The position numbers and the translations under genes are program-made. Positions 13,729 to 14,540 of a stretch of 64,000 nucleotides of DNA are shown here, piece after piece. The stretch lies in the sequence record MH494197.1; one strand, written 5' to 3'. The notes below the pieces were generated by a model. The model made no database searches and had not been told where the DNA came from. It saw only the letters and a program-made list of their open reading frames with translations. Position 1 is the stretch's first letter. Every line of letters starts with the position of its first letter. The DNA comes from Escherichia phage CMSTMSU.

Positions 13729-14540
13729 TCATAACAGTACGATATTTCTTTTGAGAGTTTTATATATACTAATAATAAATCCACGAGCATTATACTTATC
13801 ATCACGCGAGAGCACAAGTTGTAGTACTTTATTAAATGCTTCTTTTGGGTCTTGTGGTAATTTATTATCATCAATTAGAAGTTGTGCTTCACTTTGCATA
13901 GCATCAATAACATTACCAAGCTGTGGAGTATATTCGATACCAGAACTTAAGTATTCATCATGGTCTTTGCCATAGTTTTTCTTAACCTGTAATTGGTTTG
14001 ATTTACTATTGATCTTCTTGATTACTGAACTTTGCACAAAGTGTTGTGCTTCGTGGTATGCAGTACTCATTATTTGCATAGAAGATGAATATATTTCTTT
14101 CGGTGATAATCTAATGTTTATTCTAATAACATAAGCATTATCTGCAATTTCAGTCATTGAGCCACGTTCTTTAGCAGAAGAATCATTTGCAATAACTAAT
14201 GATAGTTTTGTCTTTTAATTTCATCAACAATTTCTGGAGCTAACTTTTTAAAGTTTAGTTCTTTAATATATTGTTCAGCATCAAATGGTATTTTGACCGA
14301 TTGGTTTGCAATTGTATTGAATGATTGTGAACTAATATTTTTAGCTCCATACTTTGAACTCAATACATTTAGTGTTTTTTGCACTCTGCAATAACATTCG
14401 CTTTAATTTTTTCAGCAGCAGGATGTTGACGTGTTTCAGCATCTACATGAATATCATATTGCTGAATAAATTGTTTTATTTTAAAGTACAGAACACTTGC
14501 CACATAACTGTTAATTTGTGTCATAGTAGTACTGGGACTT
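13729..14540 (-). CDS. hypothetical protein with HExxH motif (possible metallopeptidase), frameshifted
   Basis: [11 protein letters not shown] in ORF 13729..14157; upstream fragments 14196..14384 and [19 protein letters not shown].. likely the same gene. Confidence 0.3.

Follow-up and report, generated by a model that had tools for sequence, protein, structure and literature searches.

The gene and its reading frame

The window, a stretch of 64,000 nucleotides from the Escherichia phage CMSTMSU record (MH494197.1), belongs by sequence comparison to an Asteriusvirus-like jumbo coliphage of the PBECO4/121Q group, with relatives including Ecwhy_1, BF17 and fEgEco12. A megablast search with window positions 13000-15200 matched 35 jumbo phages of E. 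coli and Salmonella, with identities of 82.8-97.4% among the 20 matches listed. In all annotated relatives the region studied here lies inside one minus-strand gene of 1572 nt, labelled 'virion structural protein' or 'hypothetical protein', and all close relatives carry the gene intact (e.g. Ecwhy1_109, fEgEco12 g416 and phAPEC6 gp162c); the orthologues also include PBECO4/121Q gp50, a 'virion structural protein'. One flank of the gene holds a 264-aa virion protein and topoisomerase II, and the other a KTSC-domain protein, a ClpS-like protein, IF3 and a Dda helicase.

Within the window this gene is split into four ORFs (13059-13709, 13729-14157, 14196-14384 and 14369-14524), and the 142-aa ORF at 13729-14157 (minus strand) holds the YHEAQH sequence that the first-pass annotation had pointed out. 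That annotation read three of the fragments as a frameshifted gene of ~270 aa. The three broken ORFs are present in the sequence as given, but they form only the N-terminal half of a gene for 523 aa, whose frameshifts are artefactual. Alignment with two relatives identified seven missing single bases that produce the apparent frameshifts (Table 1); six of the seven fall in runs of at least two identical bases, the exception being 13756, a diverged site. With the seven bases restored, the gene encodes a 523-aa protein that differs from its intact Ecwhy_1 orthologue at 5 of 523 residues and matches phrog_18596 with an E-value of 4.6e-231.

Table 1. Features of the gene for the 523-aa protein, in window positions (A1 and A2 are the alignments described in the text).
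Feature	Position	Strand	Basis
Whole gene, 523-aa virion protein	13010..14574	-	Alignment to two relatives (L001/L002) and frame repair
Region of the first-pass annotation: three ORF fragments, ~residues 17-283, most of the N-terminal zincin-like domain (1-297)	13729..14540	-	ORF list, AF2 domain limits
Seven missing single bases, before 13019, 13065, 13713, 13756, 14213, 14375 and 14537	13019..14537	.	Alignment with two relatives
L6-Q7-E8-S-I-I-K-V-P14, candidate prohead-protease site/capsid-targeting propeptide border	14532..14559	-	Pattern [LIVM]-x-E then hh-x-h-P
HEAQH (H175-E176-x-x-H179), putative zinc ligands and general base, middle of helix 159-189	14041..14055	-	Invariant in A1 and A2; in 125/126 homologues
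Y209 codon, six residues N-terminal of E215, candidate transition-state stabiliser (role inferred)	13951..13953	-	Invariant in A1 and A2
E215 codon, candidate third zinc ligand, start of helix 213-236, motif S-x-x-E-[YF]-x-P-Q-[LI]-G	13933..13935	-	Invariant in A2
C-terminal alpha+beta domain, ~residues 316-523, mostly in ORF fragment 13059-13709	13010..13625	-	

Missing bases occur throughout the window. Comparison of positions 1-48596 (48.6 kb) with Ecwhy_1 yielded 221 indels, all 221 of which are deletions in the window, a density of 4.5 per kb. Most of these (184/221) are single bases, mainly in runs of 4-7 A/T or 3-4 G/C, and homopolymers of at least 4 bases hold the majority of the 221 deletions. 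Every gene checked carries between one and eight frameshifting deletions, including those for terminase, both RNR subunits, primase and topoisomerase. Such a pattern marks an unpolished assembly with under-called homopolymers and is impossible for a viable phage. Because the homopolymer deletions run in one direction and strike every gene checked, the frameshifts are sequencing or assembly artefacts and the gene is not a pseudogene. The seven breaks in the reading frame as given would suit a decaying, truly frameshifted gene, a reading left with virtually no chance by the deletion-only indels, the like damage to terminase, RNR, primase and topoisomerase, and the near identity of the repaired protein to its intact orthologue; programmed frameshifting was rejected on the same window-wide deletion-only homopolymer errors. 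Other findings of a 'frameshifted gene' in this window should likewise be treated as read errors and not as pseudogenes or programmed frameshifts.

The two genomes also differ between the genes for the small and large subunits of RNR, where Ecwhy_1 has ~790 bp (L003:24321-25109) that are absent from the window at 24124-24135. This segment encodes Ecwhy1_127, a 257-aa hypothetical protein of phrog_3532 with no Pfam match, and is possibly a mobile insertion, for example a homing-endonuclease-like gene.

Conserved residues and predicted fold of the N-terminal domain

A bare HExxH pattern is not beyond chance (9 occurrences in the six-frame translation versus 3.2 +/- 1.9 in shuffles), and what makes it significant is conservation. 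A word-indexed search retrieved 43 homologues with identities down to 28%, and 88 proteins came from an exhaustive profile search across 1.84 billion representatives. About 30 of the 88 are full-length relatives or paralogues of 750-890 aa (e.g. CBB_322), and about 58 are distant proteins, mostly of 270-300 aa, whose matches cover profile positions 155-295. HExxH occurs in 125 of the 126 collected sequences, the sole exception being a 123-aa N-terminal fragment; this conservation is partly circular for the distant ~280-aa matches, which were recruited via the motif-bearing region, an objection that does not apply to the full-length family members (26-33% identity). Alignment A1 comprises 38 sequences and alignment A2 comprises 97, with identity to the query down to 14%. 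The stretches Y174-H-E-x-Q-H-x-V-Q182 and S212-G-x-E215-x-x-P-Q-x-G221 are invariant in A1. The sole invariant columns of A2 are H175, E176, H179, Y209 and E215, while E8, P14, Q182, S212 and P218 are conserved at 90% or above. The 847-aa paralogue CBB_322 has a second copy of the domain in which HELQH and SGVEF are intact. Ecwhy1_105 (798 aa), considered as a possible second copy, was unrelated on testing.

As judged from the alignments, H175, E176, H179, Y209 and E215 form a set of the gluzincin type. The first-pass annotation had proposed looking downstream of the motif for the third zinc ligand, and a candidate is found in E215, 36 residues past H179 on the next long helix.

We modelled the full-length protein with AF2 (pLDDT 85.3), and in this model a disordered linker joins the N-terminal domain (1-297) to an alpha+beta domain at the C-terminus (316-523). 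Modelling of the N-terminal domain with a deeper alignment gave a pLDDT of 95.1 and a pTM of 0.93, and the least confident segment of both models is residues 1-10 (low pLDDT). The core of zincins consists, in order, of a helix, three strands, the HExxH helix and the Glu helix (PMC5512222), and the order of secondary-structure elements in our N-domain model agrees with it: helix 114-121 and strands 124-130, 139-145 and 148-154 are followed by helix 159-189 with HExxH at its centre, the loop bearing Y209, and helix 213-236, which opens at E215. The prediction thus contains the gluzincin features of HExxH on an alpha-helix (HEAQH, residues 175-179), a candidate Glu ligand on the next conserved helix and, by element order, an N-terminal helix and three strands before the active-site helix. 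Foldseek found no match in the PDB at E <= 0.001 and no significant 3D similarity to solved zincins, so the domain as a whole is without a close solved relative. Gluzincins among the non-significant matches were M61 7xyo (E 0.65), anthrax LF 1pwp_B (0.94), 1pwv_A (4.8), several ACE2 chains and EcxA (4l6t). For the first-pass annotation, a structure prediction lacking a metallopeptidase fold would have spoken against a peptidase; what the prediction gives is the order of a zincin core in a model of high confidence, but with no solved structure matching it significantly.

Sequence and profile searches of Pfam, NCBIfam and the PDB with the protein and with the A1 and A2 profiles returned nothing at threshold. 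The superfamily is spread over four PHROGs, two annotated as 'virion structural protein' (phrog_18596 and phrog_22033) and two as of unknown function (phrog_34216 and phrog_38692), and none is annotated as a peptidase. The profile search for zincin families that had been suggested at first pass brought out two such families, DUF6782 and SprT-like (4 members each), as the top recurring Pfam families among the 97 homologues, but all of these matches are sub-threshold and non-zincin families recur at similar low counts. Further sub-threshold zincins were eCIS_core (2 members), DUF2268 (1) and WLM (2, in the first set of 38).

The best sequence similarity of the family is to the SprT-like/Wss1 (WLM) minimal zincins (PF10263 and PF08325), all of it sub-threshold. 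The SprT-like HMM (PF10263) does not match the protein itself and matches 4 of the 97 homologues with a best E-value of 0.0084, below the gathering threshold. In an hhalign comparison with an alignment of E. coli SprT, the last strand and the HExxH helix were aligned (Prob 21.6%, E 1e-3; reversed control, E 0.18), following a pattern of G...I-x-[IL] strands and then x-x-HExxH. SprT has a third His six residues past HExxH and a C-terminal zinc ribbon, whereas the jumbo-phage protein has Val in place of the His (FVQSSV after H179) and no Cys-rich ribbon, and its candidate third ligand is instead the Glu on the following helix. A 'SprT-like metallopeptidase' in 1-3 copies was reported in some group 2.2 jumbo phages (Iyer et al. 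2021); this may be the same family, which would limit the claim of novelty.

The MPTase-PolyVal domains of the N4 vRNAP and P1 DdrB (Iyer et al. 2017, PMC5512222) resemble the jumbo-phage family in several respects. Like the family, they are encoded by phages and associated with virions. The three-strand sheet, HExxH helix and Glu helix of these domains are predicted in the jumbo-phage family too, and some proteins of both are fused to ART-PolyVal, GNAT and 2H domains. The Pfam MPTase-PolyVal model does not match the jumbo-phage family. We built an N4-type MPTase profile from 14 sequences of the virion-RNAP region of Schitoviridae genomes (N4 gp50 and 13 loci), using the 13 Schitoviridae loci instead of a protein-database search, which had returned 2 matches. 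The hhalign match to this profile (Prob 32%, E 4.7e-4) spans 49 columns around the HExxH helix alone, and the profile-profile probabilities for SprT and N4-MPTase lie at 20-32%. The conserved Glu of N4-type domains lies in an A-L-N-E-F-M-A-W helix ~85 residues downstream of HExxH that has no counterpart in the jumbo-phage family by hhalign; the latter has motifs of its own, Y-x(2)-S-x(2)-E-[FY]-x-P-Q-[IL]-G and an N-terminal E-G-L-I-x-V-P. In the 14 Schitoviridae vRNAPs (N4 gp50, L012:14524-25026, and L013-L025), HE[LMV][VIL]H and the downstream A-L-N-E-F-M-A-W helix are conserved, and the Glu of this helix is presumably the third zinc ligand of the N4-type domains.

The constellation of residues is that of the lethal factor/MtfA-type gluzincins (MEROPS M34/M90). 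In anthrax lethal factor and MtfA, HExxH is followed by the liganding Glu, which a Tyr precedes by a few residues. Lethal factor is among the weak Foldseek matches, but this type has no significant sequence or structural match to the jumbo-phage protein, and hhalign against E. coli MtfA gave an E-value of 0.1 with the active site not aligned. The literature searched yielded no experiments on the zincin-like family.

A zincin-like metallopeptidase is the best-supported reading of the protein and, in our judgement, a probable one, drawn from the motif, the predicted topology and weak profile signals, together with the virion presence of an orthologue and the effector-type fusion partners of distant homologues described below. 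Of the zinc metallopeptidase proposed at first pass, what stands is a constrained, catalytic-looking HExxH with E215 and the element order of a zincin; membership in a described family falls away, as none was above threshold. The protein is best placed in a new and so far unannotated family among the zincin-like peptidases that occur in virion or ejected proteins of phages.

Virion presence, N-terminal motif and domain fusions

MS of purified virions detected the phAPEC6 orthologue gp162c (60 kDa), with a coverage of 25.4% from 10 unique peptides, and gp161c, the product of the adjoining gene, was likewise detected (PMC7247149). Gp162c is 84.5% identical to the window protein, and the virion detection is that of the orthologue. 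Other components described for phAPEC6 are a capsid inner body and a 'prohead core scaffold and protease' (PMC7247149). In the part of the CBB virion MS table covered, the flanking CBB_320 (KTSC) and CBB_322 are present and CBB_321 is absent.

The N-terminus of the protein, MKYNQLQE|S, fits the (L/I)-x-E propeptide pattern by pattern match. E8, I11, V13 and P14 are invariant in A1, and the motif [LIVM]-x-E-(G/A/S)-hh-x-h-P lies at the N-terminal border of 106 of the 127 domain copies, internal copies included, as in RLDE-GLIKVP after Acb1. The T4 prohead protease gp21 cuts after the Glu of L/I-X-E, and the first 10 residues of T4 IPIII suffice for targeting to the head, such proteins then being injected (PMC9026906). 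By analogy, the border motif suggests head targeting and processing. The jumbo-phage N-terminus is likewise short and ends in (L/I)-x-E as in the gp21 motif; further T4-like traits are the presence of the protein in the virion, the T4-type prohead protease of the phage and the fusion of Alt-like ART domains to homologues. Apart from the short motif, the protein shows no homology in sequence to T4 IPI-III or Alt, and the residues past the Glu are far more conserved than a simple cleavage site would predict. Given this strong conservation, the segment past the Glu could equally belong to the domain structurally, or act as a latency or pro-segment in contact with the active site. The exact T4-type late promoter TATAAATA is absent upstream of the gene cluster and is not enriched in the window.

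The family is found in jumbo phages only, comprising Asteriusvirus, Mimasvirus, Eneladusvirus-like phages of Erwinia, Serratia and Yersinia, Munch-like Salmonella phages and Xanthomonas phages. A standalone form of ~280 aa, always annotated as 'hypothetical protein', occurs in XacN1 (ORF117), Xoo-sp13, the Stenotrophomonas phages CM1 and RAS14 and Salicola SCTP-2. Phage contigs from metagenomes carry fusions of the domain to ART-PolyVal (P0077 and P0123), GNAT (P0123) and Acb1 or 2H phosphoesterase (P0078 and P0124), and the domain is duplicated in P0096 and P0124. Partners of the ART, GNAT and 2H types are typical cargo of injected 'polyvalent' phage proteins (PMC5512222). On contig L006, genes for a T4 gp15-like protein, a lysozyme and a Tad2-like protein lie beside the gene with the domain. 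In P0078 the 2H part has a further match, to the C-terminal end of phrog_146, a PHROG 'portal protein' family.

The 264-aa protein encoded next to the zincin-like protein (Ecwhy1_108/phAPEC6 gp161c; window 12219-13010, minus strand) matches both ends of the 847-aa CBB_322 (L004:4611-7154), with 60% identity over residues 1-60 and 38% over residues 609-847. From this match at both ends, the Asteriusviruses appear to have lost an internal ~550 aa that included the second copy of the zincin-like domain. The C-terminal part of the 264-aa protein is GNAT-like by eye and has no Pfam match.

Proposed function and alternative readings

We propose that Asteriusvirus-like jumbo phages make the 523-aa protein intact as a two-domain virion protein, and that its N-terminal ~300 residues would fold as a metallopeptidase domain of the gluzincin-type, zincin-like class. 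The zinc would be held by H175 and H179 of the HExxH helix and by E215 of the following helix; E176 would activate the water, and Y209 would probably help to stabilise the transition state. The protein would be packaged in the virion, probably in the head, by means of a short N-terminal [L]-x-E propeptide that a T4-type prohead protease would remove. Most likely it would then enter the cell together with the DNA and there cut host proteins of defence or housekeeping. Zinc binding, proteolytic activity, location in the head, N-terminal cleavage, ejection and substrates are points that we infer.

A wider reading, which we offer tentatively and consider rather doubtful, is that the protein is the type example of an unrecognised, jumbo-phage-wide superfamily of capsid-targeted zincin effectors. 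Each copy would follow an [LIVM]-x-E prohead-protease site, and copies would be loaded either alone or as a polyprotein with ART, GNAT or Acb1-like domains, cut free, and injected against host proteins of defence or proteostasis.

Dozens of jumbo phage virion proteins are without a known role, and proteins injected with the DNA are the first weapons against host defences. If the family is a head-packaged zinc peptidase, four PHROG families now labelled 'unknown' or 'structural' would gain a function in many cultured jumbo phages, among them Asteriusvirus, Mimasvirus, Eneladusvirus, XacN1, SCTP-2 and others. The family would also be linked to known counter-defence modules (ART, GNAT and Acb1), and there would be a concrete set of residues to mutate. 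Such a result would not be surprising in kind, but it would give a widespread jumbo-phage virion protein a concrete and testable function.

An active zincin peptidase could also serve in virion morphogenesis, processing itself or other head or structural proteins and not host targets after ejection. The protein is present in the virion, as are the products of its neighbours (phAPEC6 gp161c and, in that part of the CBB table, CBB_320 and CBB_322), and Iyer et al. propose roles of this kind for the group 1 jumbo phage zincin and for P1 DdrB. These phages, however, already have a T4-type prohead serine protease, and the gene lies outside the head module, among genes of replication and host takeover (topoisomerase, ClpS-like, IF3 and helicase). 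The fusion partners of the distant homologues (ART, GNAT and Acb1/2H) are effectors directed at the host and not assembly proteins. We regard a role in morphogenesis as unlikely on these grounds.

The conservation pattern bears on whether the domain is an enzyme. As a purely structural or scaffolding virion protein, it would use the HExxH/E metal for stability or would be a dead relic, a pseudo-peptidase; the database annotation is 'virion structural protein' alone, and no active peptidase is a significant structural match. Yet E176 and Y209, which binding a metal would not by itself require, do not vary in ~100 sequences of 14-30% identity, and pseudo-enzymes normally lose such residues. This makes a purely structural protein less probable still than a morphogenetic peptidase.

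The first-pass annotation had named ImmA/IrrE-like peptidases as one possible affiliation, with cleavage of host or phage regulators as the function. An anti-repressor protease of this type (M78), cleaving a transcriptional regulator of phage or host, would share with the jumbo-phage protein the HExxH and the downstream Glu, which are common to all gluzincins. Peptidase_M78 (PF06114) does not match the protein at E <= 10 and is not among the families that recur in the 38 or the 97 homologues, and no HTH repressor adjoins the gene. Context and biology differ as well: only virulent jumbo phages have the family, and the protein is a virion component, not the product of a lysogeny module. We dropped the ImmA/IrrE-like assignment as highly improbable.

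The order IF3-like, ClpS-like, KTSC and zincin-like (window 14564-16159, minus strand) is common to Asteriusvirus and the Mimasvirus CBB, and the zincin-like protein is ~30% identical between the two. Pfam ClpS matches the Ecwhy_1 ClpS-like protein weakly (E 0.014) and CBB_319 strongly (6.5e-14). Linking the peptidase in function to a phage N-degron adaptor is speculative. If the wider superfamily reading is extended in this more speculative direction, the order of the ClpS-like, KTSC and zincin-like genes might reflect a phage N-degron pathway, in which the peptidase would expose new N-termini that the phage ClpS hands to host ClpAP.

Between the ClpS-like and KTSC genes (window 15110-15165, minus strand) we observed an inverted repeat of ~12 bp, AAAACTCCAAGATT...AAATCTTGGAGTTTTTT, followed by a T-run, which from its sequence looks like an intrinsic terminator. 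Its loop holds GATAAATA, with one mismatch to the T4 late-promoter box, and the KTSC gene has its GGAG Shine-Dalgarno within the 3' arm of the repeat.
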